Shown in pieces: positions 2,996-52,500 of a stretch of DNA of 64,000 nt. Below the pieces are notes generated by a model, which saw only the letters and a list, made by a program, of their open reading frames with translations, had not been told where the DNA came from and ran no database searches. Source of the DNA: a bacterium. GTDB taxonomy: Bacteria; Patescibacteriota; Minisyncoccia; Phycocordibacterales; UBA12079. The stretch covers positions 1,073-65,072 of the forward strand of contig DAOWHH010000016.1 in assembly GCA_030641525.1 (NCBI GenBank), in the 5' to 3' direction. The first letter of the stretch is position 1; every line of letters begins with the position of its first letter. The translations under genes were made by a program, and so were the position numbers.

Positions 2996-3883
2996 CTAAC
3001 TCCCTAATTTGATTGCTCTCAATTTAGCACTACGCGATCTTGGATTATTTTTTATTTCCTCTCTACTAGGAATAATTGGCTTTTTAGTTAAAATTAATCC
3101 TTCTTTATTTTCTTTTAATTTTCTAAAATAATTCTTTACTACTCTATCTTCCAAACTATGAAAAGAAACAATTGCTATTATTCCTCCTTCATTTAAAAGT
3201 CCAAAAGCTTTTTCTAATCCCATTTTTAAAGATCCTATCTCATCGTTTACAGTAATTCTTAAAGCCTGAAAAGTTTTAGTAGCATAATGTAGTCTTTTTG
3301 ATTGATACCATTTAGGTACCGCCTTTTTAATAATCTCTACTAATTCAAAAGTGCTTTCAATAGTTTTTTCTTTTCTTGCTAAAACAATTTCTTTAGCAAT
3401 TTCTTTAGCAAATCTTTCTTCTCCGTACCCAGAAATGATATCTGAAATATTGTCCTCGTCCCAATTATTTACAATTTCTTTAGCTATTAAATCGTCAGAG
3501 CTTGGTTTTTTTTTAAAGGTCATCAGAAGTGGTTCGTTTTTTTGAAAAGAAAAACCTCTTCCTGAATCTTCTAATTGATCAGAACTAAATCCTAAATCAA
3601 AAACTATTTTATCCACCTTTTTAATATCCAATTCTTTCAAAACCTTATCTAGATTTCTGAAATTTTCATTTACCAAATGTCTTCTACAATTTACTTTCAT
3701 TTCTCTCACTCTTTCAAGAGCTGAAATATCTTGATCTAAACCAATAACCATTCCTGATTTTCCAATCTTTTTACATATTTCATTTAGATAACCACCTCCA
3801 CCCACTGTTCCGTCTAAAACAATATCCTTTTCCTGAATATCTAATATATTTATTACCTCATTTAAAAGAACTGGTTTGTGCAT
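2996..3883 (-). CDS. rsmH: 16S rRNA (cytosine1402-N4)-methyltransferase RsmH (MraW)
   Basis: 295 aa. Conserved N-terminus MHKPVLLNEV...LDGTVGGGGY and the DLGFSS motif. Sits between mraZ and ftsL. Confidence 0.9.
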   Translation of the reverse strand: MHKPVLLNEVINILDIQEKDIVLDGTVGGGGYLNEICKKIGKSGMVIGLDQDISALERVREMKVNCRRHLVNENFRNLDKVLKELDIKKVDKIVFDLGFSSDQLEDSGRGFSFQKNEPLLMTFKKKPSSDDLIAKEIVNNWDEDNISDIISGYGEERFAKEIAKEIVLARKEKTIESTFELVEIIKKAVPKWYQSKRLHYATKTFQALRITVNDEIGSLKMGLEKAFGLLNEGGIIAIVSFHSLEDRVVKNYFRKLKENKEGLILTKKPIIPSREEIKNNPRSRSAKLRAIKLGS

Positions 3884-3884
3884 A

Positions 3885-4352
3885 TTAAATAACCCCTATT
3901 TCTCCTAATTTCTCAGCCAATATATCTGCCTGACCTTCAATTTTTTCTTTATAAGTTTTCCAAATCTTTTCATCCCAAATTTCAATATGATCACTCACTC
4001 CGGCAAAAACTACTTTCGTTTTTAATTTTCCATAACTCTTTAAAAAATCTGGAACCAAAACTCTACCAATAGAATCAAGTGATACTTCCGTAGCTCCGGC
4101 TACCATTAATCTTTTAAAACCTCGTTGATCTGCTTGACCCATAGAAAGTCCTGCTAATTTTTCTGATACTTTTTTCCATTCAGACATAGCGTAAACATAA
4201 ATACAATCATCAGAACCTTTTGTCATAATCATTTTTTTTCCCATAACACCACGAAATTTTGTAGGTAACGAAACCCTTTTTTTAGAATCTATAGTATGTG
4301 TATACTCTCCTATCAACATAATATTTAAAATGTATTTACCACCTTTTCCCAC
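3885..4352 (-). CDS. mraZ: Transcriptional regulator MraZ
   Basis: 155 aa. Begins MLIGEYTHTIDSKKRVSLP, the MraZ signature, with a duplicated MraZ domain. It is the first gene of the dcw operon. Confidence 0.85.
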   Translation of the reverse strand: MGKGGKYILNIMLIGEYTHTIDSKKRVSLPTKFRGVMGKKMIMTKGSDDCIYVYAMSEWKKVSEKLAGLSMGQADQRGFKRLMVAGATEVSLDSIGRVLVPDFLKSYGKLKTKVVFAGVSDHIEIWDEKIWKTYKEKIEGQADILAEKLGEIGVI

Positions 4353-4606: not shown

Positions 4607-6576
4607 ATGAAAGAGAATGAAAAAACTAAAAAAACTCTTGAAGAAACAATAATTATTACTACTAAAAGAATAGGAATTATTAGACTTTCTGGTAACGATA
4701 AAATAGAAATACCAGAAAATAATCTAAATACTGCTTTAAACGGAGATTTAATTGAGGTATCTTTAGAAAAAAAACCTCGAGTAATAAATGTAATAAAAAG
4801 AGCTAAGAATAAATTCGTCGGAACAATCTATAGAAAAGATGATGTTTATTTCTTAACCCCAGATGATTTTAGATTTTATCCCCACCTAGAACTTGCTCGT
4901 CCAGTAAGTGGTGTTGGAATTCCTAGTGAATTCTCTAACTTAAAGGAAGATATCTCAAATGGAAATACTAAAGTATTAATTGAGATGTCTGAATGGACAA
5001 ATCCGAAAGAAAACCCTGTAGGAAAAATAATAAAAATATTGGGTAGAAAAGGAGAGAATAATACTGAAATGGAAGCTATTCTTTATGGAAAAGGTTTTGA
5101 CACAAGCTTTCCTCAAGAAGTTGAAGAAGAAGCCAATAAAATTAAAAATACAGCCACTAAAGAATTTGCAAAAGAAATTAAAAAAAGAAAAGATATAAGA
5201 AAAACCACAACCTTTACTATTGATCCTGATGATGCTAAAGATTTTGACGACGCCTTATCTTTTAAAAAACTAAAAGATGGTAATTATGAAATTGGTATTC
5301 ATATTGCAGATGTCACTCATTATGTAAAAATAAATTCAATTATTGATAAAGAAGCTATAAGTAGAGCCACTTCAGTTTATTTAGTAGACAGAACTATTCC
5401 AATGCTTCCAGAAATTCTATCTAATAACTTATGTTCTCTAAACCCCGATGAAGATAAACTTACCTATTCCGTTATTTTCACAATAAATAAAAATACTCAA
5501 ATAATAGATACTTGGTTTGGAGAAACTATTATCCATTCAGATAAAAGATTTACCTATAAGGAAGCTCAGGGTAATTTAGATAGAGGAAAAGGTGATTTTT
5601 ATGAAGAATTAAAAATTCTAGATGAATTGGCTAAAAAAATAAGAAAAGAACGAGCTAAAAAAGGAGCTATCTCTTTTGGAAGTAATGAATATAAATTCAC
5701 TCTTGATGAAGACGGAAAAGCTATTGATGTACATAAAAAAGAGCTAATGCAAACTAATGATTTAATTGAGGATTTTATGCTTTTAGCTAATAAAGCTGTA
5801 GCCGAATTTATTCATAATCAAGAAAAGAAATTAAAAATAGAAATACCTTTTGTTTATCGTATTCACGATATTCCTAAAGTAGATCAAATTAAAGAATTAG
5901 CCGATTTTCTTAAAAAGACAGGTTATCACTTAAGTATCAAAAAAATAAAGTATCCTCACGAGATTTAAATAATTTATTAGAAAAAATAGAAGGTGAGCCC
6001 GAAGAAAATCTAATCGCTACTGCTATGCTTAAATCAATGGCCAAAGCTATTTATTCCACTCAAAATATTGGACATTATGGTTTAGCTTTTGAACATTATA
6101 CTCATTTTACATCCCCTATTCGTCGTTATCCTGATATGATGGTTCATCGTTTAATGAAAAAATATTTAGCAGGTGAAAATATATCTCCTCGTTCAATCAA
6201 AAAATATAAAGAATTAACTTCCCGATCAACCCAACAAGAAATAGCAGCTGTAGATGCTGAAAGGAATTCTGTTAGATATAAATTTACAGAATTTATGTCA
6301 GATAAAATAGGAGAAGAATTTGAAGGTGTTATTTCTGGAATTACTAAATGGGGAGTATATGTTCAAATAGAAAACGGAGCTAATGGAATGATAAGTCTTA
6401 GAACTTTGAAAAACGATTATTATGATCTTGATACGAAAAATTATAGTTTAGTTGGACAAAAAACAAGAACTAAATATTCTCTTGGAGATAAAATAAAAGT
6501 CCGTTTAATAAAAACAAATATAGACCGACAATTAATCGATTTTGAAATCTCCGGAGGTTCAACCTCCGGAGGTTAA
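4607..6576 (+). pseudogene. rnr: Ribonuclease R (VacB), interrupted by a frameshift in an A7 run at 5939-5945
   Basis: ORF 4607-5968 carries the cold-shock and RNB domains and ends at a stop. Reading frame 1 from 5950 gives VSSRDLNNLLEKIEGEPEENLIATAMLKSMAKAIYS...HYGLAFEHYTHFTSPIRRYPD plus the S1 domain, through 6576. Adding one A (A8) gives a continuous ...GYHLSIKKNKVSSRDL... protein. Confidence 0.75.
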
Positions 6577-8879: not shown

Positions 8880-8930
8880 TGAGATAAGTATATCATAATT
8901 ATTTTATTAAAAAATGATAAAAAATAAAAA

Positions 8931-9000
8931 AGATATCTGGGGAGGTTGGGCCTCCCCAGATTAAAAGTTGGCTATGCGATAGCCGACTTTTTTAAATTTT
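8931..9000. repeat. 70-bp double-hairpin element, copy 1
   Basis: AAAAGATATCTGGGGAGGTTGGGCCTCCCCAGATTAAAAGTTGGCTATGCGATAGCCGACTTTTTTAA, nearly identical to 9730-9800. Confidence 0.8.
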
Positions 9001-9728: not shown

Positions 9729-9729
9729 A

Positions 9730-9800
9730 ATAAAAAAGATATCTGGGGAGGTTGGACCTCCCCAGATTAAAAGTTGGCTATGCGATAGCCGACTTTTTTA
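9730..9800. repeat. 70-bp double-hairpin element, copy 2
   Basis: Near-identical direct copy of 8931-9000, with one G/A difference in the first hairpin. Confidence 0.8.
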
Positions 9801-9849
9801 AATTTTCACAGTTAAAATTTGCATTAAAATCAATTATGTTGTATTACTA

Positions 9850-21267: not shown

Positions 21268-21681
21268 TTATTTATTTTCGTTCACTATAACTCTTACTAT
21301 AGATTCTTCATAATCATTTATCACGACTATTGCTCCAAAATCATATTTTAAATTAGATTGAAACCAAAAACTTTTAATTTTATCTAACTCTTGTTCAACA
21401 TCTTGTCTTTTTCTTTTTACTTCAACAATAAGAAAATTATGATCATGATTACCTCTCTTATGCACAACAATATCAGGTCTTTTATTTTCTAAATTTGGTT
21501 TTGATATATCAACATCACAACTATAGTCATGAAAAACTTTTTGGATTTCACTTGAATAATGATGTGTAATATTCCATTCGGTCTGGTTTGTAGCAGATGT
21601 AAATTCAAAAAAATCTTTTTGACTTTCCAAAAGATTTTTTACTGCTTTTTTTAATATTTCTTCAATTTTAATTTTATCCAC
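21268..21681 (-). CDS. Small PD-(D/E)xK-like protein; fourth gene of the type III R-M operon
   Basis: 137 aa with RPDIVVHKRGNHDHNFLIVEVKRK (a PD ... E-x-K arrangement). Clear paralogue of 54917-55408. Starts 10 bp after the res stop. Confidence 0.5.
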   Translation of the reverse strand: MDKIKIEEILKKAVKNLLESQKDFFEFTSATNQTEWNITHHYSSEIQKVFHDYSCDVDISKPNLENKRPDIVVHKRGNHDHNFLIVEVKRKRQDVEQELDKIKSFWFQSNLKYDFGAIVVINDYEESIVRVIVNENK

Positions 21682-21691: not shown

Positions 21692-24448
21692 TTAAGAAAT
21701 CAAATATTTCTGAATCTTAGTCAATATATTATCCACCGTCAATTTATTCTTTGGTGAACAACCAACAATATGATCAACATACTTTTTATTTTTTAGTTCT
21801 GTTAGTAAATTAGCACTTACATTTCCTTTCCCAGAATGATGATGAATTTGAGCAGTAATAATAACACTATATTTACTTTGTCCACTTTTCAATTTTCCCA
21901 TAATGCCGCTATTTTTAAGTTTTATATTATTGAAAAAATCAATATCCCATTCAGTCGCATTAATTCCAAATTTTGAAAAGTAGTTATTTAATTCTTGTTT
22001 AATTGTGTTTTCATCAACAACCTCACCTAAAACACAAATATTGAATGGTTTTTGTATTTTTAATTCTCTTTGTTGTGTTTGGGTTGTGTTATCCTGATAT
22101 TGTAAAACTGCTTCAAGATTGCTTTTTGCATCTCCTAATTGCATTGTCAAAAGTTCATTTTTCTCTTTTTCATTTTCGAGATCTTTTAATGCTTTTTCCC
22201 ATTCTTTGCCAATTTCTTCTAAAAATTTTTCATCACCAACTACTTTTTTACTCTGTGCAACTTTTCTCAATCCTTTTTCATAAATTGAGGAAAAGCTACC
22301 TAAATCTTGCTCCTTTAGACTTTTGAAAAAATTTAAATAATCTATTGGTGAAATTATCCAAAAATGTAATTTTTCTTTCCCCTTATATTTTTTTAAATAA
22401 GATTTTCCAGCATTAAGTTTAAGAATATTTTCATTTTTGAAATCTTTATCATCTTTAATTTCAACTACTAAAATATCTTTTTTTGTTTTTATAACAAAAT
22501 CAGGGTAAAAACCATAAAAGTGGTTATCTTCCTTTTTGTAAGAAATCCCGAAATACTTACTTTCTCGCTCACCATTTTTCCACCACCACAAAATATCATC
22601 ATCTGTCTTTTCTAATTCATTAATAAATATTTCTTCCGGTTTAGATTGTATTAATTTTCCGTTTTTATTTTTCTTGATTGAATATGGTTTCAGAATTGAT
22701 TTTTTAACATCTGTTATAGTTTGATAGTTATCAAATACACTTAAAAACTCAGGTACTTGCCAATTTTTATTTTTATTTACAATATCAATTTTTTCTGGAA
22801 GTTGCTTATATTCTTCCTTAGCAAGTTCAATTAATTGTTCAATTTCACTTCTATTTTTTGGATTAAGGACTATGTTAGCAATTATGTCTTCATCATCAAT
22901 TTTTAACCTCCTTTTGAAAAGTGAGCGTACGCTACTTTTTAAAATTTCTGTTGAACGAGTGGGAGCAAATGGAGAAGTTTTAGATCGTAAAAATTTTGTG
23001 TATTCAGCACAAATTTCTTCTCTATCTTTCAAAATATCTGTTGTTTCATCAAAATTAACTGTTTGTACGATGTCAATATCTACAATTTCTCCATCCACAC
23101 CGATTTTCTTTTGAAGAGGAACAATATTAGCATTGATAGCTTTCTTTAGATTTTTATCTTCAGCAACTTTCAACAAACATTTTCTAAATTCGCCCGAAAG
23201 TCTTGTTTTCTCTCTTTTTCTGCGAATATGTTCACTTGGTAAATAAATATTTCCATAAACAGTATTATCTCGTTGCATTATTTCCTTACTTACATAATCT
23301 TTTGCTAAATCTTCTACTATACTAAAATTGTCAGAAGCAGTGTAAACATAACCAATATTTAAATCTGGATTATTCTCATAGTACTTATGTTCTGGCATTC
23401 GCATAATTCGTCCAAGTGTTTGAACATTGAAAATATAGTTATCTACATTCCATTCTCTCTGTAAGAGTAAAATACTTGCTCGAGGACAATCCCAGCCCAA
23501 AGCTATAGCTTCTTTGAAAACTAAAACATTGACATCACTATCATTGTTTTCTAAATAATCTAGATTCTTTTTTTTATCTTTTTCCGAGAGCCAAATGGCT
23601 AATTTTTTGTTTTGTGTTGTAATTCCTTGTTTACTCAATACTTCTAAAATCCTATCTTCAGGATCTCTCACATCTCCAGGACTTTTTCTCGGAATTTGAA
23701 TAAGTAAAAGTGGATTTACTTTCGAGCCAATTTCTTCATATTGTTTCTTGAGTTGTTTTTGTCTGCGAAGTGCAGCTTCAACAACATCTTTATTCGTTTC
23801 TGCTTTTTTCAAACCAAGATTTATCTGAATTCCTGACTTAATCATTTCTTCAACAATTACATCTGATCGCTTTACAGATATTTTATGATTACTTGCCATT
23901 TCTTTCGGTGTTGCCGAAACTTCAATTGTTAAATTTGGAGAAATAATATTAATAATCTCTTTTGATTTACTCGTCTTAGCATTCCTATGGCTTTCGTCAA
24001 TAATTAAAACAATTTTTCGATCTTCTTCTTTTGTATTATCAATTATTTTGCTCAAATTCCAATCCCTCTCATTATCAAGCATAAAAACATTTCCTTTTTT
24101 GTTAAGACTTTCCCAATTAACAAAGAGAATTTGATTTTCTTCAATTTCATTGTTTTGAATTTCGTTTACTGAAATACATTCAAGTAATCTTTCGTTTTCA
24201 AAATATCCTTCTAATTTTTCTTTACTTTGTTTGTGCAGATAATTTACAGAAATCCAAACAAAAGATAATTCTTTCTTTCCTTGAGCTTTTTTTGTAATCT
24301 GCGACAAACTTTCAGCAAGCATAATTGTTTTTCCTGCTCCTGTCGGAGCCTGAAAAACAATTACACCGTTATCTTCCTCTTCTAATAATTCTGTGGAGTA
24401 ATCAACTAGTTTTTTTACCGCCTTATTTTGATAGTTTAATTCTTTCAT
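21692..24448 (-). CDS. res: Type III restriction enzyme Res subunit (SF2 helicase plus nuclease)
   Basis: 918 aa. Motif I FQAPTGAGKT, motif II IIDESHR, and a PDFVIKTKKDILVVEIK PD-(D/E)xK block, plus an extra roughly 200-aa C-terminal region. Its start overlaps the mod stop by 4 bp. Confidence 0.85.
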   Translation of the reverse strand: MKELNYQNKAVKKLVDYSTELLEEEDNGVIVFQAPTGAGKTIMLAESLSQITKKAQGKKELSFVWISVNYLHKQSKEKLEGYFENERLLECISVNEIQNNEIEENQILFVNWESLNKKGNVFMLDNERDWNLSKIIDNTKEEDRKIVLIIDESHRNAKTSKSKEIINIISPNLTIEVSATPKEMASNHKISVKRSDVIVEEMIKSGIQINLGLKKAETNKDVVEAALRRQKQLKKQYEEIGSKVNPLLLIQIPRKSPGDVRDPEDRILEVLSKQGITTQNKKLAIWLSEKDKKKNLDYLENNDSDVNVLVFKEAIALGWDCPRASILLLQREWNVDNYIFNVQTLGRIMRMPEHKYYENNPDLNIGYVYTASDNFSIVEDLAKDYVSKEIMQRDNTVYGNIYLPSEHIRRKREKTRLSGEFRKCLLKVAEDKNLKKAINANIVPLQKKIGVDGEIVDIDIVQTVNFDETTDILKDREEICAEYTKFLRSKTSPFAPTRSTEILKSSVRSLFKRRLKIDDEDIIANIVLNPKNRSEIEQLIELAKEEYKQLPEKIDIVNKNKNWQVPEFLSVFDNYQTITDVKKSILKPYSIKKNKNGKLIQSKPEEIFINELEKTDDDILWWWKNGERESKYFGISYKKEDNHFYGFYPDFVIKTKKDILVVEIKDDKDFKNENILKLNAGKSYLKKYKGKEKLHFWIISPIDYLNFFKSLKEQDLGSFSSIYEKGLRKVAQSKKVVGDEKFLEEIGKEWEKALKDLENEKEKNELLTMQLGDAKSNLEAVLQYQDNTTQTQQRELKIQKPFNICVLGEVVDENTIKQELNNYFSKFGINATEWDIDFFNNIKLKNSGIMGKLKSGQSKYSVIITAQIHHHSGKGNVSANLLTELKNKKYVDHIVGCSPKNKLTVDNILTKIQKYLIS

Positions 24449-26229
24449 GATTGTTTTAATTTATGAATGTTTTTATAAATTTTTCGGTATACATTCAAAA
24501 TTACTTCTGGAATTGGTTTTATTTCCACGATACTTGATATGTCGTCAAAATCTTCTTTATTGAAAGTGTGATCATAACTGAATACATAAACTGTAAGTGG
24601 TTTCTTTAATTTTTTAACCACCTTGATAAAATTATCAATTGCATCTTCATCATAAATAATACCTGTCATTTTTTCTGAATTCTCAAAAATTACAAAAAAA
24701 TCTTTTTTCTCTAACACTTTATCAAAAGTATCTTCAGTTAAACAGAGCATTTCGGTACTTTTACTTACTAATTTCCTTTTATCATTATCTGTTCTTATTT
24801 GATTAACAAAAGCAGTTTCATAGTAGCGTAGACTTCCACCCAAACCATCAATTTTCTTCATTTTAGAATTTTTATAACCATTGATAATTTTTTCTATTCG
24901 TGGATATGTAACTCTCTGACATATACCAATTTGATCTTTATTAAGTTTTGGGTTTTCCTTTACTAATTTACTACCAACACCGTTTAATTCGTTGTTAGTA
25001 CATAAAATAAATTTTCTATTTCCTTTGTCTTCACTATTCAAAAGTAGGGTAGCGACTCCAGTCGTTCCACTTCCAGCCATAAAATCTAAAATAATTGAAT
25101 TTTTATCACTTGTCAAATAAAGAATATCTTTTATAAGTTCCAGTGGTTTAGGGTTGTCAAACACCTTGTCTCCAAACATATCTTTTAATTGAGCTGTTCC
25201 ATTTCCGCTACTGTATTCTGGCTTATAAAATAAAGTTTTTGGTTTTTTTGTGGGTAAATCCCTAAGTTGTGGTCGTTGTTTTTTGTATAAACTATATTCA
25301 CCATTTAGTGAAACAATTATATTGTGATTTTCTTCATTTAATTTCTTTTTACTCCATCTCCACGACATTTCTTTTTTTTCTGTAATTGGCAAAATAATTT
25401 TATCCTTTTTATTCAAAGGTTTATCATTTATTGTTGTATAAAAACTTCCGTTAGATTTAAAAAATATTGGATAAAAAAGATTTGGTCTTTTTTCTCTTGG
25501 TGCATTTGTACCGGTTGCTTTTAAGTTTGCCCCTTTTTTATAATAGCCGTATTCATCTTCATCCCATTCTTCCATTATTTTTTCTTCATCAACATCAAAC
25601 TCATTTATATTCGCCAAAGATTTATTTTTAGCATAAATAAGAGTATATTCGTGAGTCCCTGCAAATCCAAATTGATCATTATTACCTTTTAGGTTCATTA
25701 CTGTTGGAAGCATGGCAATAAAATTATTTTCACCAAAAAAGTTTGGATCATCCATTAATACTCTTAGTTGCCCAATTTCATTATCATCAATACTGATAAC
25801 AATAATTCCAGTATCTTTGAGTAAATATTTTGCTAGTTTTAATCTTTTAGCAATAAAAGATAACCATTTTGAATGACGAAATCTATTTTCTTTATCGATA
25901 TAGTCATCATTATATACAAAGTCCTTATTTCCAGTATTATATGGCGGATCAATATAAATCACATCTACTTTCTTTTTGTGTGTATAACACAAAGTTGAAA
26001 GAGCATGATAATTATCACCTTTAATTAAAATATGTTTTAAATCATCTTTATTATTTTCAATTCTTTTCTTTTTTATTTCACTTAAAATAGGTAAAAAATC
26101 TTTACATTTATCTGCGACATTCTCATCTTTATCCTCCCAAACAAGACCAAATTTCTTTCTTTGTAAAAGAGCCTTAATCTCATGGACAAGTTTGTCTTTT
26201 GACCATTTGTGATAATCTTTTTTCACCAT
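24445..26229 (-). CDS. mod: Type III N6-adenine DNA methyltransferase Mod subunit
   Basis: 594 aa with the DPPY motif (IYIDPPYNTG) and an AdoMet motif (FMAGSGTTG). Confidence 0.85.
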   Translation of the reverse strand: MVKKDYHKWSKDKLVHEIKALLQRKKFGLVWEDKDENVADKCKDFLPILSEIKKKRIENNKDDLKHILIKGDNYHALSTLCYTHKKKVDVIYIDPPYNTGNKDFVYNDDYIDKENRFRHSKWLSFIAKRLKLAKYLLKDTGIIVISIDDNEIGQLRVLMDDPNFFGENNFIAMLPTVMNLKGNNDQFGFAGTHEYTLIYAKNKSLANINEFDVDEEKIMEEWDEDEYGYYKKGANLKATGTNAPREKRPNLFYPIFFKSNGSFYTTINDKPLNKKDKIILPITEKKEMSWRWSKKKLNEENHNIIVSLNGEYSLYKKQRPQLRDLPTKKPKTLFYKPEYSSGNGTAQLKDMFGDKVFDNPKPLELIKDILYLTSDKNSIILDFMAGSGTTGVATLLLNSEDKGNRKFILCTNNELNGVGSKLVKENPKLNKDQIGICQRVTYPRIEKIINGYKNSKMKKIDGLGGSLRYYETAFVNQIRTDNDKRKLVSKSTEMLCLTEDTFDKVLEKKDFFVIFENSEKMTGIIYDEDAIDNFIKVVKKLKKPLTVYVFSYDHTFNKEDFDDISSIVEIKPIPEVILNVYRKIYKNIHKLKQS

Positions 26230-26231: not shown

Positions 26232-26441
26232 CTATTTAATCAAATTATCAATTTTAATTTCTAAACCTTTTGCTATTTTTTCCACAGTTTGAATTGAAGG
26301 TTTAGTAATAACATTAGATTCTAATTTCGTGAGAGTTGTATAGGGAACATTTGATTTTCGGGCGAGTGTATCTTGAGTTATACCAAGTTTTGCTCTTCGA
26401 GCCTTTATTTTATCCCCGATAGTTATTTTTTTACTTTCCAT
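26232..26441 (-). CDS. XRE-family HTH regulator (possible controller protein of the R-M operon)
   Basis: 69 aa with the HTH LGITQDTLARKSNVPYTTLTKLE. It is the first gene of the operon. Confidence 0.7.
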   Translation of the reverse strand: MESKKITIGDKIKARRAKLGITQDTLARKSNVPYTTLTKLESNVITKPSIQTVEKIAKGLEIKIDNLIK

Positions 26442-26443
26442 AG

Positions 26444-26455
26444 TATGATATCATA
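26444..26455 (-). promoter_or_regulatory. Perfect 12-bp palindrome TATGATATCATA abutting the HTH start codon
   Basis: It sits 3 nt upstream of the regulator's ATG, making it a candidate auto-operator. Confidence 0.35.
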
Positions 26456-26713
26456 AATATACTAGTTGGGTAATTCCCTAAATATTAATATCATTATAGC
26501 ACATTAAAAAATTCCACCAACAACCCACCAAATCAACCTGCAGTAAGCAGTCAGTATCTCCAAGCATTCAATACTGGCTATTTGTAGAAACCACCCTCAA
26601 AAAATTTCTTTTCCTTTTCTCTAAAAAAAATTTGGGGGGCGAAAAAAAAGGAAAAAATGCAAAGAAAGTTTTTTGAGGTGGTCAAAGGAACACTTCGTAT
26701 GCATAATCTATGT

Positions 26714-26789
26714 GGTCACAAATCACTAAATATTTTTTTCGTCCTTTGGACTCAAAAATATCTAAGTGTTTGCCGACCCCGGCTCACGG
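26714..26789 (+). repeat. Family-B element, copy 1 (GGTCACAAATCACTAA...TAAGTGTT...GACCCCG...TCA)
   Basis: A roughly 75-nt element with two small hairpins. Related copies are at 26894-26967 and 53513-53590. Confidence 0.7.
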
Positions 26790-26873
26790 TTTTTACTTCT
26801 TTGTGGGAAGCAAAAACATCGCTCCGCCTTCACAAAACTAAAAAAGTAAAGCAGTTTACTTTTTCTTAACGTT

Positions 26874-26894
26874 TTGTGACCCTACCGGGAATCG
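26874..26894 (-). repeat. Partial copy of the tRNA-Glu 3' end (about 20 nt)
   Basis: TGTGACCCTACCGGGAATCG matches 27061-27080. Confidence 0.75.
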
Positions 26895-26967
26895 GTCACA
26901 AATCACTAATGATTTTGTTCGTGCTTCGCACTCCAAAATCATAAGTGTTCGCGACCCCGTCTCAGAA
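26894..26967 (+). repeat. Family-B element, copy 2
   Basis: GGTCACAAATCACTAATGATTTTGTTCGTGCTTCGCACTCCAAAATCATAAGTGTTCGCGACCCCGTCTCAG. The first hairpin is GTGC-TTC-GCAC here versus GTCC-TTT-GGAC in copy 1, a compensatory change. Confidence 0.7.
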
Positions 26968-27062
26968 AATTTCGAATTTTCTTCCGACTTTCGATTATCT
27001 CCATAAGAGATTCACTAGAATTTAAAAAGAGATAGTTGAAAAACTATCTCTTTTTAAATTTG

Positions 27063-27134
27063 TGACCCTACCGGGAATCGAACCCGGATTGCCGGCTTGA
27101 AAAGCCGATGTCCTAACCATTAGACGATAGGGCC
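27063..27134 (-). tRNA. tRNA-Glu (anticodon UUC)
   Basis: Minus strand reads GGCCCTATCGTCTAATGGTTAGGACATCGGCTTTTCAAGCCGGCAATCCGGGTTCGATTCCCGGTAGGGTCA. Cloverleaf folds, with the anticodon loop TTTTCAA giving anticodon TTC. Confidence 0.85.
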
Positions 27135-27475
27135 ATTATTTATTATTTTAAACTAATTACATTTCTTATATTTTACACGAACATCGGCTTTTACAAAGCC
27201 TTACCCTATTTTCTATCTCACTACCGCTCGATAACGAAAATTTTTTCTTCCAGAAAAATCGGATAAAAAACAAAGAAATTTGTTTTTTATTCCAATAACC
27301 ATTAGACGATAGGGCCATTATTTATTATTTTAAACTAATTACATTTCTTATATTTTACACGAACATCGACTTTTGAAAAGCCGCCTATTTCCTATTTCGC
27401 CCTACTCAATAACGGAAATTTTTTACTTCGTAAAAATCGGATTAAAAGCAAAATGTTTTAGCCATATTACTCCAA
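27115..27475. repeat. Tandem duplication of a roughly 182-bp unit that begins inside the 5' end of tRNA-Glu
   Basis: 27115-27295 and 27297-27475 are about 80% identical. Each starts AACCATTAGACGATAGGGCCATTATTTATTATTTTAAACTAATTAC..., so the second copy holds a 20-nt fragment of the tRNA 5' end. Confidence 0.8.
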
Positions 27476-27530
27476 TATTATACCAATTTTTGTGAAAAAA
27501 GCAAAAAAATGGTAAATTGTTTAATATATT

Positions 27531-27618
27531 GGAGGTGTGGCTGAGTGGTTGAAGGTACCGCTTTCGAAAAGCGGCATGCGGGAAACTGCATCAGAGGTTC
27601 GAATCCTCTCACCTCCGC
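27531..27618 (+). tRNA. tRNA-Ser (anticodon CGA), long variable arm, CCA not encoded
   Basis: GGAGGTGTGGCTGAGTGGTTGAAGGTACCGCTTTCGAAAAGCGGCATGCGGGAAACTGCATCAGAGGTTCGAATCCTCTCACCTCCG. Anticodon loop is TTCGAAA. Confidence 0.85.
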
Positions 27619-28843: not shown

Positions 28844-29051
28844 TCTTAAAAAAATTCTTCGTAATCTAAGCATCGAAGGGTGCTAAGAAAACAACGACCC
28901 CCAGGGAAAACAAACTCACTTAATAAGTGGATTTTTTAATTAAATTTAAAACCTCCGGAGGTTCAACCTCCGGAGATAATTAAATAATTTTATACTACTG
29001 AAAACAAAAAGTAAAATAAATATAATTCGTGCTATAATACGATATATCACT

Positions 29052-34988: not shown

Positions 34989-35050
34989 ATAATTTATATT
35001 TTACTATAAAAACAAAATTAAAAATAACTAAACTGTATATAGTAAAAACA

Positions 35051-35103
35051 AAAATCGGCTATACGATAGCCATAGGCTATCGTATAGCCGATTTTTGTTT
35101 TTT
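35051..35103. terminator. Bidirectional terminator-like palindrome (GGCTATACGATAGCC / GGCTATCGTATAGCC)
   Basis: A5-TCGGCTATACGATAGCC-ATA-GGCTATCGTATAGCCGA-T5. Related hairpins are at 17267-17298, 39919-39970 and 43128-43178. Confidence 0.6.
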
Positions 35104-35106
35104 ATA

Positions 35107-36252
35107 TTATTTAGAAATTAAAGAATATTTTCCATTAGAATTTTTCTTGAAAAAATCACTATTTTGAAGATTAACCAAAATTGTATTTTCTTTAACATAT
35201 CTTTCTCTCAAAACCTTTTCTATAATATCTTCTTTAGCTAAAGGACCATTTTTCTTTAAAATATCCCTAACAACATCTTTTACTATCCCTTTAGAATAAC
35301 CCCATTCTGATAGACCATAAAGACCTCGTCCTACCAAAACAAATCTTTCATCTTTTATCAACTCATTATGACAAGTAGCAGTATGTACTTTTTTACCAAA
35401 ATGTTTACTTATCATTTTAGCTACTTCTGTAAAATGCATAGGTGAACCATTCTGTCTAACAATTAAATAAGCATGACCTCTAACTCCTCTAATTTTTATA
35501 TTTTGAGACATTGCTAACCCCCATTCACCAAAAGGATTTTTTGCTATAACTTTAGATAAATCTAACCATCTATTTACATATTCTTGATTAAATTCCTTTA
35601 TATTTTTAGATTTTTTAATTTCTTTTTTAACTAGAGACATTAAATCATCTTCGTTCATAAGATCATCACCATTAAATTTTTTATGAACATTATTTAAAAC
35701 ATCAGTAACATTATTTGATAATGTTTTATCAAGAAACCATCTTGCTTCAAATTCAGGTATATTTTTCTCTTTTATAAAAGAATTACTTAATATTAAGAAA
35801 AAATATAAATTATTTTGCTCTGACTTATTTTCTGATAAATATTCAAGCAAAGAATCTTCTGCCACAATACCTCCAATAGATTCAATAATAGTCATTAATT
35901 CTTTAAAAACATATTCGGCATCATTAAAACTTCCAGAATTACAAATATTCTTTAATGATTGGTTTTCTATCTGTCTTACTCTTTCTCTTGTAATATTATA
36001 TTTTTGACCTATAGATTCAAGAGTGTATCTTTTAGGATTATTACCTAAACCATATCTCTGTGTAATAATATCACGAGACCTTTCTGGTAGCTCAGAAAGA
36101 AATTGTTTAACTATTTGTTTTGAATTAAAATTCAACATAATTCTTATATTTTTATCATTTTTTATAGAAAAAGTCAAGAGTTTATTTAAACATCTTAGAA
36201 TTCCAATAAAATTTAATATTATATTAATATCATAACTTATGATATAAGTCAA
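35107..36252 (-). CDS. Protein with an N-terminal sigma-70 region-4-like HTH and an unknown C-terminal domain
   Basis: ERSRDIITQRYGLGNNPKRYTLESIGQKYNITRERVRQIENQSLKNI matches sigma-70 region 4. About 250 aa follow with no match. The real start is likely Met39 (about 36138). Confidence 0.5.
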   Translation of the reverse strand: MTYIISYDINIILNFIGILRCLNKLLTFSIKNDKNIRIMLNFNSKQIVKQFLSELPERSRDIITQRYGLGNNPKRYTLESIGQKYNITRERVRQIENQSLKNICNSGSFNDAEYVFKELMTIIESIGGIVAEDSLLEYLSENKSEQNNLYFFLILSNSFIKEKNIPEFEARWFLDKTLSNNVTDVLNNVHKKFNGDDLMNEDDLMSLVKKEIKKSKNIKEFNQEYVNRWLDLSKVIAKNPFGEWGLAMSQNIKIRGVRGHAYLIVRQNGSPMHFTEVAKMISKHFGKKVHTATCHNELIKDERFVLVGRGLYGLSEWGYSKGIVKDVVRDILKKNGPLAKEDIIEKVLRERYVKENTILVNLQNSDFFKKNSNGKYSLISK

Positions 36253-39687: not shown

Positions 39688-39918
39688 AATATTATTTTAA
39701 TTAGTATTAATTAATCTAATATTATCAAATACACCCTTTTATTACAATAAATATATTGATTAACCAATAATTAATTAATATTCGGAGGCTCAGCCTCCGG
39801 ATATAGAAAAACCCAATTTGTTGTTAAAAAAGCCTCGCAGACACAATGTGTTTTGCGGGGATTAATTTTGTCTAAAAAACTAAAACTTGGACCTCCAAGG
39901 TCCAAGTAATAATAAATA

Positions 39919-39970
39919 AAAAAATCAGCTATCCTATAGCTAGTAGCTATAGGATAGCTGATTTTTTTAT
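39919..39970. terminator. Bidirectional terminator-like palindrome (CAGCTATCCTATAGC / GCTATAGGATAGCTG)
   Basis: A7-TCAGCTATCCTATAGC-TAGTA-GCTATAGGATAGCTGA-T8, sitting between ychF and the upstream gene. Confidence 0.6.
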
Positions 39971-39973
39971 TTA

Positions 39974-41068
39974 TTAAATTTTAAACTCAATCACATCTCC
40001 ATCTTTTACTATATATTCTTTTCCTTCCATACGAATAAACCCCTTTTCTCGTGCTTCAGATCTAGACCCTGATTTTAATAATTCTTCCCAATTAATTACA
40101 TCTGCTTTAATAAATTTCTCCATAAAATCTGTATGAATAGATGCCCCTGCTTCAGGAGTTGTAGAATCTCTTTTAGTTGTCCAAGCCCGAGATTCCTCCT
40201 CCCCTGTTGTGAAATAAGTAATCAAATTTAATAAATCATATCCCTTATGAATTAAATAATCTATATCATCACTAGAACCACCTAAGGATTGTTTATAATC
40301 CAATCGCTCATCTTCTGGTAAATCTTTTAATTCATGTTCAATTTGAGTATCTATCTTAACCCATTTAGAATTAGATTCCTCTAAAAACCTTTCAACCTTG
40401 ATCCATCTTTCATCATCTGTTTCGTCTAAATTTTCAGCTCCCATTTTTTTATTAAAAGCATACAAAATTGGCTTCATAGTTAATAAATGTAATCCTTTAA
40501 TTACTTCTAATTCTTTTTCTGATAAATCCAAAGAATTTGCAAATTTCCCTGCATCAAGAATTTTCTCAATTTTTTCTAAAACTTCTTTTTCTAAAACAGA
40601 ATCTTTATCTCCTCTTTTCACATCTTTAATTAAATTAGCAATTCTTTTAGAAACAGTCTGAAAATCAGCCATTATTAACTCAAGATTAATAACCTCAATA
40701 TCATTCATAGGGTCTACTTTTCCTTTTACATGAATCACATCATTATCCTCAAATATCCTAACTACCTGTAATATAGCATCTGTTTCTCTAATATTAGCTA
40801 AAAACTTATTACCCAAACCTTCACCAGAATGTGCCCCTTCCACCAACCCAGCAATATCCACAAATTCAATAGCAGTATAAATAGTTTTTTTAGAATTAGA
40901 AAATTTACTCAATTTATCCAAACGAGTATCACACACAGAAACAACCCCTACTGAGGGATCTATTGTACAAAAGGGATAATTCTCCGCAGAAACACTCTTC
41001 TCTGTTAGAGCATTAAAGAGAGTTGATTTCCCTACATTTGGTAATCCTACTATTCCAATTGAAAGCAT
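39974..41068 (-). CDS. ychF: Ribosome-binding ATPase YchF
   Basis: 364 aa. [16 protein letters not shown]1 motif and a C-terminal TGS domain. Confidence 0.9.
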
Positions 41069-42714: not shown

Positions 42715-43208
42715 AATAAGTTAGTCGAAAGTCAAAAGTCCATAAAGTCCAAAGTTGGGAAAAATCGCTTTACGATTTTTTCTACCACCTTCCACTTACC
42801 ACTTTCTACCTTCTATTCATTAATTAATCTTATAAAATTATTATCGACCATACGATAGCCACAGGCTATCGTATAGATATAGTTGTAATAATATTATCAC
42901 TTTAGAATGAAAATATAAATACTCAATACTTAGTTCTACTTAGTCCTCCAAGGTCTAAGTATTTTGGCAATGAAAAACACCACCCGAAGGCGATGTTTTT
43001 CATTGTACTCAGATTGTAGCAAGCTACGATCCGAGTACAATTTATATATTATCAAAACTGATTTTAAAGTCAATTAAAATTGTGGATAAACTATATAAAT
43101 AATTAATTGTCAAATAATTAAAAAATTAATGAAATCAGCTATCCTATAGCCAGTGGCTATAGGATAGCTGATTTTCTTAATTTTTATATGATATAATATT
43201 CTTAATGA

Positions 43209-48347: not shown

Positions 48348-48953
48348 TTAAAGATTACTTGAAGTGGAACCAGAAATAAACATATTTAATCCAGTAATAG
48401 CTCCTCCCAAAGCATTTTCCAAATCTTGTACAGAAGATAGATTATTGATATTATTTTCTACATTTCTAGTTTTAGTCGGATTGATATTATTAACTATATC
48501 TTCAAACCATTTATCTAAACCTTGCAAAATTTCATCTGTCATATTACGAACATCAAGTATTAAAACATCATTAAATAGACAACGATGAATTATATTCCCA
48601 TTCAGATCAGGAGAACTAACAAATTTGTAACTCACATATCTTCTACTACTTAAAGTAATTCCTTGATGTAAAATTTTACATCTTATTTCATACCACTCAT
48701 CATCTAATAAAAACGGGCTTGCAACATAATCAGATGCCCACTTTTTATAACGACTTGAATTAGCTAATCCATTTGTTGATTCTAATGCCCCACAGATATC
48801 TGGAAAAATAATAATATAATGTAGTAATGCCCAATAAGCACCAGCTCCTCGCATTAAGGAAATCTGGTCAGTATATACAGAAAATTTTTCTTCAAGTTCT
48901 TCTTTATTCATGGTCTTATTTTTGCTTAATTTTATTAATATATTTTTTATCAA
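48348..48953 (-). CDS. Hypothetical protein, translationally coupled to the upstream helicase (38-bp overlap)
   Basis: 201-aa ORF with no motif. It is the last gene of the AbiH-like/helicase operon. Confidence 0.4.
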   Translation of the reverse strand: MIKNILIKLSKNKTMNKEELEEKFSVYTDQISLMRGAGAYWALLHYIIIFPDICGALESTNGLANSSRYKKWASDYVASPFLLDDEWYEIRCKILHQGITLSSRRYVSYKFVSSPDLNGNIIHRCLFNDVLILDVRNMTDEILQGLDKWFEDIVNNINPTKTRNVENNINNLSSVQDLENALGGAITGLNMFISGSTSSNL

Positions 48954-50544
48954 TAAATTCTAAAATCTTGGGATTTTCATCTTCTAAAGAAATCAATGTT
49001 AGTTTTTCTTTTGCTCTAGTTATACCAACCAAAAATTCGCATATCTTTTGATCAGTAAAATCTGATGTTTCTCGATCTAATATAATTTTATCATTTATAC
49101 CTACATAATAAACAAAATCCATTGAAAGCCCTTTCGAACTCATAACTGTTGTTATCTCTATTTCTGTTGCATCTTTTTTAATTGAGTCAAAACCATTTAT
49201 CATTTTTGAAAGTATATTTTTTAAATTAAAAATCTCACTAAATCTTTTTAACTCTTTGTTATTTAATTTATCTCTACCACTTTTAACTTTTTTAAAAATT
49301 TTAATATCTTCTTCTATATTTTCTTTTATATCTTTTTCTAGACAACTCCAAATTCCTTTTTTTTCTTGATTACTTTGAATTATTATATTTTTCACTTTAT
49401 CCTCAGAAGAAAAATATAGAAACAGAACCTTTCTTAATGATAAATTATCAGTTTTTCTCTCAAAAAGTATCTCAAAAATTTCTACTAAATTTTTGTGCTT
49501 TATTTTATTACATTTTTCTTCTGAAAATAATTCAAAATTAATAACATTAAATCCTTTTTTTATTAAACCTTCATATATTGTTTGTTTTAAATAACTAGGT
49601 ACCAAAACCAAAATCTTTTTTTTAACTCCTTTTTCAATATCTTTTTTTATAGCTTCTGATAATTGATAAATCAACAAGTGGCCTCCACAAGGTACAGAAG
49701 GTATAAAATCAATTTTAGGGTATTTTTCACTAATTTTGTTCTTTTCTTTTATACTATTTGGATATAAAAACTTTTTGTCTAATCGATCTTCTAAATAACC
49801 AGCACCCTTTGAGTTTCTAATTAAATCATTTGTAGTATTAACAATAACTTCCGTGCATCTAAAACAATAATCAAGAGAAAATTCTTCTGTACTAACGTCA
49901 CTATACAAATTTCTTATTTGTTCTGGTTTCGCATTTTTCCAATCATATAGAGATTGATCATCGTCACCAACTAAAACAACTTTATTTTTTTTATTGAGTA
50001 ACTTAATTAATTCATATTCAGATTTATTAAAATCTTGAAATTCGTCTATTAAAATTAAATCGTATTTCGGAATACAAGATTCTTGTTCTGAAAAAATTAA
50101 ATTGATAAGATAAATAATGGAATTAAATGAGTATAATCTTTCTCCATATTTATAAAAAAGAATTCGTTCTTTATAAAAATTTAACTCGTCCTCAGTCAAG
50201 TTATTTTCATGAAATCTTTCTTCATAATTAATATTATCTTTTTTTATAAAAAAATAATCTTCACTTATAACACAATCTAAATTTGAATCAAAATCTACAT
50301 CCCCTATCTTTTTTTTAGCAAAAGCATGTAAAGTCGAAACTTCTACATTTTTAAAATCTTTAAATTCTTGAGATAAATCATCTATCAATTTATTTATAAA
50401 AGAAAGAATTAGTATTTTTTTACCTTTATATTCATCTGATTCTATAATAGTTTTAAAGGTATAACTTTTACCTGTTCCTGGACCAGCTAATCCAACAAAT
50501 AAATTCTTTTCAGATTTTCTTATTTTTTCTAAAATATCAGTCAT
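48916..50544 (-). CDS. Compact UvrD/Rep-type SF1 helicase-like ATPase
   Basis: 542 aa. Walker A LAGPGTGKSYT, motif II ILIDEFQDFN, motif V SSKGLSMDFV, motif VI VGITRAKEKL. Confidence 0.7.
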   Translation of the reverse strand: MTDILEKIRKSEKNLFVGLAGPGTGKSYTFKTIIESDEYKGKKILILSFINKLIDDLSQEFKDFKNVEVSTLHAFAKKKIGDVDFDSNLDCVISEDYFFIKKDNINYEERFHENNLTEDELNFYKERILFYKYGERLYSFNSIIYLINLIFSEQESCIPKYDLILIDEFQDFNKSEYELIKLLNKKNKVVLVGDDDQSLYDWKNAKPEQIRNLYSDVSTEEFSLDYCFRCTEVIVNTTNDLIRNSKGAGYLEDRLDKKFLYPNSIKEKNKISEKYPKIDFIPSVPCGGHLLIYQLSEAIKKDIEKGVKKKILVLVPSYLKQTIYEGLIKKGFNVINFELFSEEKCNKIKHKNLVEIFEILFERKTDNLSLRKVLFLYFSSEDKVKNIIIQSNQEKKGIWSCLEKDIKENIEEDIKIFKKVKSGRDKLNNKELKRFSEIFNLKNILSKMINGFDSIKKDATEIEITTVMSSKGLSMDFVYYVGINDKIILDRETSDFTDQKICEFLVGITRAKEKLTLISLEDENPKILEFIDKKYINKIKQK

Positions 50545-50550
50545 TTTATT

Positions 50551-51402: not shown

Positions 51403-51413
51403 TTTTATTTTTT

Positions 51414-51510
51414 TAATGCGGGCAACCTCGTGCTGGAACCGTGGATGGTTAAACTCTGTGAGGTCATTTTTCAATAGATTTATTTTATCAAAATTAAGGT
51501 CTTCGTGCAC
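51414..51510 (-). repeat. Family-A intergenic element, copy 1 (AATGCGGGCAACCTCGTGCTGGAACCGTGG...CGTGCAC)
   Basis: A roughly 95-nt element filling the spacer between the 145-aa gene and the AbiH-like gene. Confidence 0.75.
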
Positions 51511-51516
51511 TTAATT

Positions 51517-51954
51517 TCAATCAAAAAAGAAAGTGATATCAGAACAAATCAAAAAAATAATTATTCCAACAATAATCTTATTTTTGTTATTTTTTATCCA
51601 TCCAATAATATCTATCCAAACCATTCTAAAAAATTGTCTATACGGATTGTTTAAATGCGTTATGTTGATGGTAGTATTTAAATAGAGGGAAAAATTATCT
51701 ACATGAAATTTAAATATATATCCGTTTATAATTTTATTTTTAGGAAGTCTATGCTTATTTATATCTTTATCATCATAATCTGAATCCGAATTGTTTATAA
51801 GTGTATCCAACATTTTATGATATCTGACTAAAAAATACTTATCAACTGATTTTTCCTCAGGAAAAGAAGCGGCCGAACTGAGTAAAGCCTTGATCTCTGA
51901 TTGACATCCCTCCATAACATTTTGTATTTTTATATTATTAATTTTATGATGCAT
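51517..51954 (-). CDS. Hypothetical protein with a C-terminal TM helix
   Basis: 145-aa ORF. Confidence 0.35.
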   Translation of the reverse strand: MHHKINNIKIQNVMEGCQSEIKALLSSAASFPEEKSVDKYFLVRYHKMLDTLINNSDSDYDDKDINKHRLPKNKIINGYIFKFHVDNFSLYLNTTINITHLNNPYRQFFRMVWIDIIGWIKNNKNKIIVGIIIFLICSDITFFFD

Positions 51955-52348: not shown

Positions 52349-52377
52349 ATATTTAATTATCTTCGTGATAGCTCTAA

Positions 52378-52472: not shown

Positions 52473-52500
52473 TTCTCTTTAATTAAAAATTTTTTGGCGA

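Follow-up and report, generated by a model that had tools for sequence, protein, structure and literature searches.

A repeat that runs from the T-loop to the end of the tRNA gene is a known geometry of integrase attachment sites. Integrative elements of this type, together with cis-mobilisable elements and tycheposon remnants, take the 3' part of tRNA or tmRNA genes as their target and leave the tRNA intact; they accumulate in tandem, integrase-less copies exist, and an integrase family is usually dedicated to one or a few tRNAs. Patescibacteria have tiny genomes in which few mobile elements or regulatory RNAs are recognised. Here we describe a patescibacterial locus of 1.1 kb (positions 26442-27530) around tRNA-Glu(UUC), within a stretch of 64,000 nucleotides (nt) that we refer to as the window and whose coordinates are used throughout. 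The locus carries two copies of a repeat, family B, that is similar to the tRNA-site elements in its 3' target, in the intact tRNA and in its tandem accumulation. Unlike them, family B is 150-230 nt in length, has no cargo, possesses a core that covaries as RNA does and includes an inverted copy of its target, and its single core family is found at tRNAs of 37 anticodon types. We tentatively interpret these units as insertion elements that carry a structured RNA, and weigh this below against a function for the host.

Family B units behind tRNA-Glu

tRNA-Glu(UUC), on the minus strand, and tRNA-Ser(CGA) beyond it, both named in an earlier, sequence-only reading of this DNA, were called by ARAGORN and Rfam and are the only two tRNAs that ARAGORN reports in the window. 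The copy of the tRNA-Glu 3' end that had been claimed downstream of the gene is real: an exact 22-mer, TTTGTGACCCTACCGGGAATCG, occurs at 26873-26894 and 27059-27080, a spacing of 186 nt, where none was expected (100 shuffles), and there is no third copy in the whole window even when up to three mismatches are allowed. The displaced copy and the tRNA's own end enclose a 164-nt non-coding insert, here termed B2, beyond which lies the second element, B1. Indeed all the repeats listed in the earlier reading are present, its coordinates being displaced by only 1-2 nt.

In the sense of the tRNA, the order of a class I unit is tRNA, a hairpin (T1), a', the junction GAAAG, P3, the P1/P2 hairpin ending in GACC, and a#2. 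The a' segment is the reverse complement of the tRNA T-loop, T-stem, acceptor strand, discriminator and C74, and hairpin P4, which has a CUGC loop, often interrupts it precisely where the acceptor part meets the T-stem part; a#2 is a direct copy of tRNA positions 57-74, the tRNA itself remaining intact. Pairing of a' with a#2 closes the core as an acceptor/T-arm-like helix, and the core has CGAA on either side (TTCGAA/AG...GAC/CGAAT, junctions marked by slashes). In class II, to which B1 belongs, a#2 has shrunk to discriminator-C-A, and a' complements the last acceptor bases and the trailer, pairing with the tRNA's own end around P4. The family B features of the window are as follows.

27062-27134, minus strand: tRNA-Glu(UUC), intact (ARAGORN; Rfam tRNA model, 66 bits)
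27059-27080, minus strand: a#1, the last 18-22 nt of tRNA-Glu, position 57 to C74 plus AAA (exact 22-mer repeat)
27019-27060, minus strand: T1, perfect 19-bp hairpin right behind tRNA-Glu with A/T runs on either side, terminator-like (inverted repeat I2, 100% complementary)
26997-27018, minus strand: a' region of B2, comprising GTGA, a small hairpin ATCTC..GAGAT and AATCG (read from the sequence)
26888-26996, minus strand: B2 core, class I, with junction GAAAG, P3, the long irregular hairpin P1/P2 and a GTGACC end (model R1)
26873-26894, minus strand: a#2, second, displaced tRNA-Glu 3' end in direct orientation, from position 56/57 in the T-loop to C74 plus AAA
26840-26868, minus strand: P4, hairpin with CUGC loop (read from the sequence; conserved in L022 and L139)
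26708-26836, minus strand: B1 core, class II (model R1, 82 bits, E 5.6e-19)
26688-26707, minus strand: small C-GAA-G hairpin, conserved behind tRNA-Glu-type B elements
53488-53650, minus strand: B3, orphan class I element, core 53507-53633 (model R1, 100.4 bits)

T1 forms the left end of the B2 insert and was not scored as a terminator by a pattern scan because it contains too few G-C pairs. The B2 core (90.7 bits, E 3.5e-21) has an RNA fold z score of -5.8 and, like T1, is missing from the syntenic relative L022. Its a' is merely a partial inverted copy of the tRNA-Glu 3' end, pairing with CGATT and TCAC, unlike the insert at the same site in contig L139, which has a perfect 16-nt a'. The P4 hairpin at 26840-26868 is the original tRNA-Glu terminator; its stem is lengthened by pairing of TCACAAAAC, which comprises the tRNA end and trailer, with GTTTTGTGA (26830-26838), and hairpins of this type recur in many loci. 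The B1 core is followed by ACA alone (discriminator, C74 and A) and not by a long tRNA copy, and its orthologue in L022 displays 90% identity with compensatory stem changes. Covarying versions of the C-GAA-G hairpin are found in L022, L044, L111 and L126 (GTGCGAAGCAC, ATGCGAAGCAT and ACACGAAGTGT).

The covariance model identified exactly three family B copies in the window, all in the minus sense (E 1e-19 to 1e-23), and sets the two elements previously noticed at the locus at 26708-26836 and 26888-26996. The cores of B1 and B2 are about 85% alike, while P3 and the flanks are unrelated, and the nearest relatives of B2 are located in other genomes at other tRNAs. The third copy, B3, has an a' (GAGAAGACAGGATTCGAAAG) and an a#2 (AATCCTGTCCTCTCCGCAA) that match a tRNA-Ser-like 3' end, with no tRNA gene nearby in the ARAGORN calls for the window; it folds with z = -4.5, and has a P3 similar to the one in the L059 element that follows tRNA-Ser(GCU). 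The region around B3 (48916-54833) contains a cluster of defence or mobile-type genes: a UvrD-like helicase, AbiH, an EEP-family nuclease (53904-54833) and, at 52501-53421, an HNH endonuclease that has homing-endonuclease repeats. None of these recurs at the other B loci, and the HNH, EEP and AbiH genes, considered as partner enzymes, were rejected on this ground. The sole open reading frame (ORF) of at least 60 codons in 26442-27530 is a 70-residue frame on the plus strand (26657-26869) that spans B1.

B1, B2 and B3 share a core of about 75 nt whose stems stay paired through compensatory changes; in the general layout of a unit the conserved core measures about 110 nt. In an alignment of 78 sequences, 95.2% of the cells were paired, compared with 77% after shuffling and 30-40% when the partners were slid, and the covariation score of 0.436 (against 0.12) was reached by none of 500 shuffles. 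One P3 pair alone is CG in 27 sequences, GC in 21, AU in 19 and UA in 6. Of 77 whole elements, 74 were more stable on the strand in the sense of the tRNA, the mean difference being 9.3 kcal/mol, as were 97 of 113 P2 hairpins and 69 of 77 P3 hairpins; a G.U pair on this strand is conserved in 76 of the 78 sequences. As folding favours the strand co-oriented with the tRNA, the functional sense is the minus strand of the window. Family B thus displays compensatory pairs and strand-specific folding, the generic marks of a structured non-coding RNA, and its core is close to invariant over many metagenome-assembled genomes (MAGs). These data suggest that the core works in single-stranded, folded form, and most likely as RNA. 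Rfam 15 gave no match over B at E<=10 for the window locus, E<=1 for L045 or E<=0.1 around B3, and tRNAs alone scored in these scans.

The flanks of the core are tailored to the local tRNA. The median length of the longest exact complement that an element has to the end of its own tRNA is 11 nt; complements of at least 10 nt were found in 64% of cases with the own tRNA end compared with 2% with the end of another tRNA. Behind 34 of 122 elements lies a direct copy of the own tRNA 3' end with at least 14 of 16 positions matched. In both classes the core is followed by the discriminator of the local tRNA and C, such that copies at tRNA-Trp all have GC while those at tRNAs with discriminator A have AC. 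It could be argued that a' is the decayed 5' half of a duplicated tRNA; where the acceptor stem contains a non-Watson-Crick pair, however, a' complements the 3' strand and not the tRNA's own 5' base in seven of seven cases, and this explanation is therefore ruled out. The a' segment copies the trailer of the gene and not CCA. For a tRNA-derived, SINE-like retroelement, non-templated CCA or identity with the 5' half of a tRNA would be expected. CCA, considered here as a mark of an RNA intermediate, follows a#2 in about 4-5 of 25 clear cases; it is too rare to serve as one and can be explained by genes that once encoded CCA.

Such complements extend beyond family B. Among 67 tRNAs without a detectable B copy, 33% have a complement of at least 10 nt to their own 3' end within 150 nt downstream, compared with 0.6% of controls. 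Some of these are terminator stems that reach into the acceptor strand (L065 and L108), while others are followed by different structured cores with the same layout, comprising at least two further families, GAAGCCCGATTGAGC...GCCAATTGGGGTACTGA and AGGTTGCC...GACAACCTGTACTGA, the second also denoted AGGTTGCC...GACAACCT. An a'-type module is present at around two thirds of 190 tRNA genes in the B-bearing loci, 105 with B and 22 others. A repeat of about 61 nt in the window (ATGCGGGCAACCTCGTGCTGGAACCGTGG..., plus strand, 51410-51470, 52373-52433 and 53692-53752, about 1 kb apart) resembles the 3' half of the AGGTTGCC...GACAACCTGTACTGA cores, which occupy tRNA T-loop junctions at other loci; it has no Rfam match.

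Distribution, gain and loss of family B

A gapped pattern of 24 bases recovered at least 117 loci from a collection of species-representative genomes. Among the matches listed, almost all are Patescibacteria MAGs, comprising Paceibacteria, Kaiserbacteria, Lloydbacteria and Nomurabacteria, with one complete Campbellbacteria genome and a few entries labelled just 'bacterium'. One B-bearing contig, L026, is binned to a Flavobacteriaceae MAG (Patiriisocius sp.), probably wrongly given that almost all other matches derive from Patescibacteria. Matches of a separate 15-16-base pattern to viral contigs (18 loci) were discarded as chance, since none carried the rest of the motif.

Linkage to tRNA genes was evaluated in about 1 Mb of loci that contain 158 B copies and 190 tRNA or tmRNA genes; it should be emphasized that these loci were picked for carrying B and the fractions are therefore biased upward. 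A tRNA or tmRNA gene on the same strand lies upstream of 126 of the 158 copies, mostly ending 50-100 nt before the element. Conversely, 105 of the 190 genes have a copy downstream, and these represent 37 of 43 anticodon types as well as one tmRNA. Stacks of two or three copies are located behind 15 tRNAs.

The relative L022, which is syntenic with the window (71% protein identity for TsaD and 79% for a tRNA synthetase), contains tRNA-Glu, B1, one copy of the upstream unit U described below and a 21-nt 5' fragment of the tRNA. It lacks B2: the alignment shows a clean gap of 186 bp exactly at the 22-bp repeat, which is single in L022, being the end of tRNA-Glu itself. A metagenome scan for closer relatives of the locus returned two contigs, of which L139 was informative. 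L139 has the same tRNA-Glu end as the window and a B1-type element, between which lies a different insert of about 180 nt bordered by the same 22-23-nt repeat. The sequence-only reading had proposed recurrent insertion at this tRNA end, and the three states of the site, empty in L022, occupied by B2 in the window and by another insert in L139, bear this out.

Relatives of the L139 insert in L060 sit behind tRNA-Gly; the sequence on both sides of a' has been kept, while a' itself fits tRNA-Glu in L139 and tRNA-Gly in L060. Similarly, cores that are 85-88% identical occur at different tRNAs in different genomes, exemplified by L035 (Gly) and L119 (Leu), which display 88% identity; by eye, both have the same unusual P2 apex and begin a#2 with GCTTCT where their own tRNAs have GATTCT. 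In 18 of 90 cases a core and its nearest neighbour sit at tRNAs for the same amino acid, where 5.8 would be expected; in 80% the tRNA types differ. Stacking, presence and absence between relatives, and related cores at other tRNAs together suggest that discrete units insert or disappear at the T-loop, with flanks that become tailored to the new tRNA.

Competing explanations and neighbouring DNA

Our preferred interpretation, to which we give a little less than even weight, is that family B inserts as a non-autonomous element with the T-loop as its target and brings a structured RNA with it. The locus would represent a stack of two family members, B2 next to tRNA-Glu and B1 beyond, and units would be gained and lost as discrete blocks at the T-loop/3' end of tRNA and tmRNA genes, inserting at the conserved T-loop sequence through an enzyme presumably encoded elsewhere. 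Analogy with described systems suggests three possible routes. A tyrosine recombinase may act on a folded single-stranded site in which a' paired with the tRNA-end copy mimics the target, like integron attC or CTX phage; an HUH enzyme may nick after GGTTC in the manner of IS91; or an RNA or reverse-transcription intermediate may be processed by tRNA enzymes. All three would be compatible with a repeat that spans the T-loop to C74. The host may have retained certain copies, B1 for example, for the handling of tRNA 3' ends; given domesticated copies, an insertion-element origin and a host RNA function could both be true.

Several observations weigh against an insertion element. For these units of about 150-230 nt we found neither an enzyme that would mobilise them nor a circular form nor an autonomous version; the search for an autonomous version, in which ORFs would separate the element from a cognate tRNA-end copy far upstream, gave a largest distance of 650 nt, which proved to be a stack. 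L022 might just as well have lost B2 by deletion between direct repeats, which would account for the difference from the window. Compensatory changes accompany 90% identity between the B1 orthologues, in genomes where TsaD and the synthetase show 71-79% identity; this looks like selection in place and hence a host function, not like the decay of a selfish insert. In class II (B1) the repeat is only 2-3 nt, and a' may be interpreted as the tRNA's own terminator arm in extended form, an arm that is found without B in L065 and L108. As to the retailoring of a', simple crossover models would give a chimeric tRNA. B2's own a' is poor.

The strongest rival, which is serious although we consider it rather unlikely, is that family B is a host non-coding RNA linked to tRNAs, transcribed with or just after the tRNA and acting on it through a' in 3'-end processing, quality control or regulation, its copies having spread by local duplication and been inherited vertically. 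Release by RNase P, RNase Z and the CCA-adding enzyme would be expected from the a':a#2 helix, which mimics an acceptor/T-arm and ends in discriminator and C74. Consistent with this rival are the strong conservation of orthologues with compensatory changes, the near-invariant core, the cognate discriminator and C after the core in both classes, the a'-type module at some two thirds of tRNA genes (105 plus 22 of 190) and the excess of nearest cores that share an amino acid (18 against 5.8). In addition, P4 is positioned exactly at the point at which an acceptor/T minihelix would be left by the D and anticodon arms, and the plant tRNA-snoRNA dicistrons processed by RNase Z, which appear in the reference list of PMC12045711, offer a precedent. 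In contrast, elements come and go between relatives and different cores occupy one site, while stacks of two to three copies and the orphan B3 are hard to fit to a dedicated role for each tRNA. Many tRNAs have no copy, and 80% of nearest neighbours are at a different tRNA type. Furthermore, a terminator-like hairpin separates the tRNA from the element, and the mimic in L045 has A-U in place of the alanine identity pair G3.U70.

A bolder proposal, which we regard as unlikely, is that a' is a programmable guide derived from the target, and that B and the two or more other families constitute a tRNA-directed system of Patescibacteria, which would serve either in homing to the T-loop or as guide RNAs for the processing or modification of each tRNA. 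Every unit would then bring along the 3' end of one tRNA in antisense as well as in sense form. To our knowledge no bacterial equivalent of guided T-loop homing or of per-tRNA guide RNAs has been described.

The sequence-only reading saw classical integrase scars. On such a view the repeats would be attL and attR remnants of larger elements, of phage or island type, that entered at tRNA-Glu and have mostly been deleted, and B would be a leftover attP arm. We consider this improbable. It is true that direct repeats of the 3' part of the tRNA flank the insert (22 bp at B2, and the copies after 34 of 122 elements), that the repeat, from the T-loop to just past the tRNA end, corresponds to the identity block of T-loop integrases, that tmRNA is also a target and that one tRNA can bear tandem units. 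The opening bases of a#2 also seem to move with the element (GCTTCT in L035 and L119), as a crossover inside the repeat predicts. No copy, however, lies more than about 650 nt from a cognate tRNA-end copy, leaving no room for an integrase gene or cargo, and no recombinase gene is found in or adjacent to the elements, the B2 insert having 164 nt and those at other loci being too short. Pfam detected no integrase or recombinase among the ten ORFs scanned beside the locus (15.6-26.4 kb). RNA-type covariation and strand-specific folding are not expected of an arm that binds protein as double-stranded DNA, and the inverted copy tailored to each tRNA is left unaccounted for. The partial tRNA copies do flank discrete inserted DNA, as had been suspected; what they enclose is the 164-nt structured element, one of the non-coding elements of about 110-190 nt located behind tRNAs in many Patescibacteria, and not the neighbouring restriction-modification (R-M) island.

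The R-M genes lie on the far side of B1, in the following order.

21692-24448: type III Res (Pfam)
24445-26229: type III Mod (Pfam)
26585-26688: long A/T/G-rich palindrome between B1 and the candidate R-M control gene (inverted repeat I1)

We read the 69-residue ORF at 26232-26441 as a candidate R-M control protein. Besides Res and Mod, Pfam assigned housekeeping-like genes among the ten ORFs between 15.6 and 26.4 kb. It had been suggested to look for a further tRNA-Glu end copy near 21.2 kb, bounding the island; there is none at that position or elsewhere in the window, and with no tRNA copy on the far side and no integrase in the ORFs scanned, no link between the repeats and the type III R-M genes was found. 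Whether relatives share the repeats without variable island content, which had been put forward as what would refute an integration hotspot, has a mixed answer: B1, U and the 5' fragment are shared without the R-M genes, while the content directly behind the tRNA varies. Compared with L022, the orientation of the tRNA block against its flanking genes is reversed, and about 11 kb (15.6-26.7 kb, the housekeeping-like genes included) separates B1 from a shared flank gene. An empty R-M site was not definable from L022, the genomes being too distant, or from L095, another MAG, which shares no genes with the window beyond B1. The nested palindrome with A/G-rich tracts that had been noticed here was found, with arms at 26595-26618 and 26655-26678 that are 79% complementary. 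Its region (about 26540-26713) is conserved beside the B1 orthologue in L095, while the remaining 8 kb of L095 show no similarity to the window, R-M genes included; judged from this conservation, the palindrome is part of the conserved flank of the tRNA block and not specific to the R-M island. A hairpin, CAGTAT...ATACTG (26540-26580), beyond the palindrome on the R-M side of B1, is also conserved with L095. The 137-residue ORF beside Res (21268-21681), which has no Pfam match, has a paralogue in a 163-residue ORF (54917-55408) beside the EEP nuclease, with 30% identity over 141 residues.

That the locus arose by ordinary local duplication, through slippage or template switching at hairpin-rich tRNA flanks without any dedicated element, is highly improbable and is refuted for the B elements: template switching at quasi-palindromes can yield inverted copies, terminator stems that reach the tRNA end exist without B and 5'-fragment duplications similar to the plain tandem U1/U2 occur at 11 of 185 tRNAs, but B1 and B2 are not copies of each other, the closest relatives of B2 are at other tRNAs elsewhere, and the same conserved core is present in at least 117 loci. 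Local duplication is still the best account of U1 and U2, which are located upstream of tRNA-Glu.

27135-27295, minus strand: U1, upstream region of tRNA-Glu, with a terminator-like hairpin, a promoter-like TAAAAT and an inverted anticodon-arm copy, AAAAGCCGATGT
27296-27316, minus strand: tRNA-Glu 5' end repeated exactly over 21 nt, from position 1 to position 21 in the D-loop (two copies, none expected)
27317-27475, minus strand: U2, second, diverged copy of U (repeat families D1 and D3; no counterpart in L022)
27531-27618, plus strand: tRNA-Ser(CGA) (ARAGORN, Rfam)

The units, 27114-27295 and 27296-27475, each open with the 21-nt tRNA 5' end and are 97% identical over the first 87 nt and 81% over a further 48 nt. 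The 182-bp duplication starting with the tRNA 5' end, as earlier described, is thus present; its grouping with the inserts does not hold, as it is a separate tandem duplication of the tRNA promoter region and the first 21 nt of the tRNA. One U with the 21-nt fragment already exists in L022, whose counterpart is 85% identical to U1. Tandem Repeats Finder called nothing between 25 and 29 kb, the repeats being found by a separate repeat search, and an assembler artefact is unlikely because both copies have diverged. Another assembly of the same sample (ENA contig L019) breaks inside U2, at 27443; repeat-rich tRNA flanks appear to fragment assemblies. Inverted anticodon-arm copies, exact over 12-14 nt, are located at 27182-27201 and 27364-27383 and also occur in L022 and L025; they overlap a promoter-like -35 and, in L025, covary with the tRNA sequence. 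A promoter and terminator scan of the locus gave the same counts as shuffled sequence. The partial 5'-end copies upstream of the 11 of 185 tRNAs are in some cases tandem units like U1/U2 and in others tRNA pseudo-copies with a core in the T-loop. Tandem units of a tRNA 5' fragment and leader are found in L084 (about 3586-3891); L081 (about 5693-5776 and 6336-6425) has 5' fragments and structured D-loop inserts of 50-60 nt with the common motif CCGACGCT; and pseudo-copies with a structured core within the T-loop occur in L089 (about 2549-2737) and L037 (619-829).

Elsewhere, the window contains a full-length LOOT RNA (Rfam RF03000; 61216-61343, minus strand; 82 bits, the threshold being 46), an orphan structured RNA, and families of long, perfect intergenic hairpins with GC cores, present as high-identity repeats such as ATCGGCTATACGATAGCC...GGCTATCGTATAGCCGAT and CCTCCGGAGGTTCAACCTCCGGAG, which are probably terminators.

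35041-35109, 39911-39979 and 43121-43189: hairpin family
6532-6571 and 28936-28975: hairpin family
8923-9000 and 9729-9806: hairpin family

Comparison with known systems

Beyond the tRNA-site integrative elements, several systems share individual features with family B. Similar to B, integron attC sites and the attP of CTX phage adopt a structure on one strand, have mismatches in their stems and are inserted serially at a fixed site, and a hairpin stem could mimic a double-stranded target in both cases. Unlike attC, family B has a far larger conserved core and stem sequences tailored to each tRNA. No integron integrase, attI or Xer/dif context was found in the parts of the window scanned by Pfam, with no genome-wide search having been made. 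Plant tRNA-snoRNA transcripts and mascRNA resemble B in that a non-coding RNA lies behind, or is bounded by, a tRNA-like helix and could be excised by RNase P, RNase Z and the CCA-adding enzyme. These are, however, single eukaryotic loci, whereas B mimics the 3' end of the neighbouring tRNA, is present in multiple copies and varies between genomes.

The transposons of the IS200/IS605 and IS91 types share with B their hairpin-rich ends and an internal 'guide' that pairs with the flanking target, and IS91 reportedly inserts after GTTC, the sequence that precedes the B junction (GGTTC/GAAT). In contrast with B, their guides are 4-5 nt, their ends are conserved and they generate no long target duplication. 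No TnpA, TnpB or Rep gene is associated with B, and a base-by-base reading of ten element regions showed no adjacent ORF. With the Rfam IS605-orfB models the T1 hairpin alone was matched, at chance level (12.4 bits against a threshold of 94). A layout similar to omega RNA, a scaffold followed by sequence identical to the target, is present in B, but here that sequence is paired with a'. Classification among miniature inverted-repeat transposable elements was rejected, since the interior of B is conserved while the flanking stems vary with the tRNA, the opposite of what such elements show, and the repeat comprises 18-22 nt of the tRNA. A retron or similar RNA would have a reverse transcriptase gene beside it; there is no such domain in the 20 window ORFs scanned and no adjacent ORF in the other loci examined; the matches to Exo_endo_phos_2 (Endonuclease-reverse transcriptase) in the window are two EEP-family nucleases only. 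TIGR-Tas was checked as a described counterpart and is unrelated, and no account of elements like these came up when the text of open-access papers was searched.

In about 1 Mb of B-selected loci, over half of the tRNA genes thus bear a covarying, tRNA-tailored element that Rfam does not match, and the more than 150 examples suffice for a curated RNA family. If mobile, family B would represent a new way to colonise essential genes without breaking them, perhaps with a guide-like segment; if its members are host RNAs, they would point to an as yet unrecognised step in the biology of tRNA 3' ends within a major lineage of bacteria. Its repeats probably also explain assembly breaks at tRNA loci in these organisms. 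For the combination of small size, a covarying core, an inverted target copy and use of nearly all tRNA types, no described counterpart was found in open-access text or Rfam; the target geometry of family B is that of known integrative elements.

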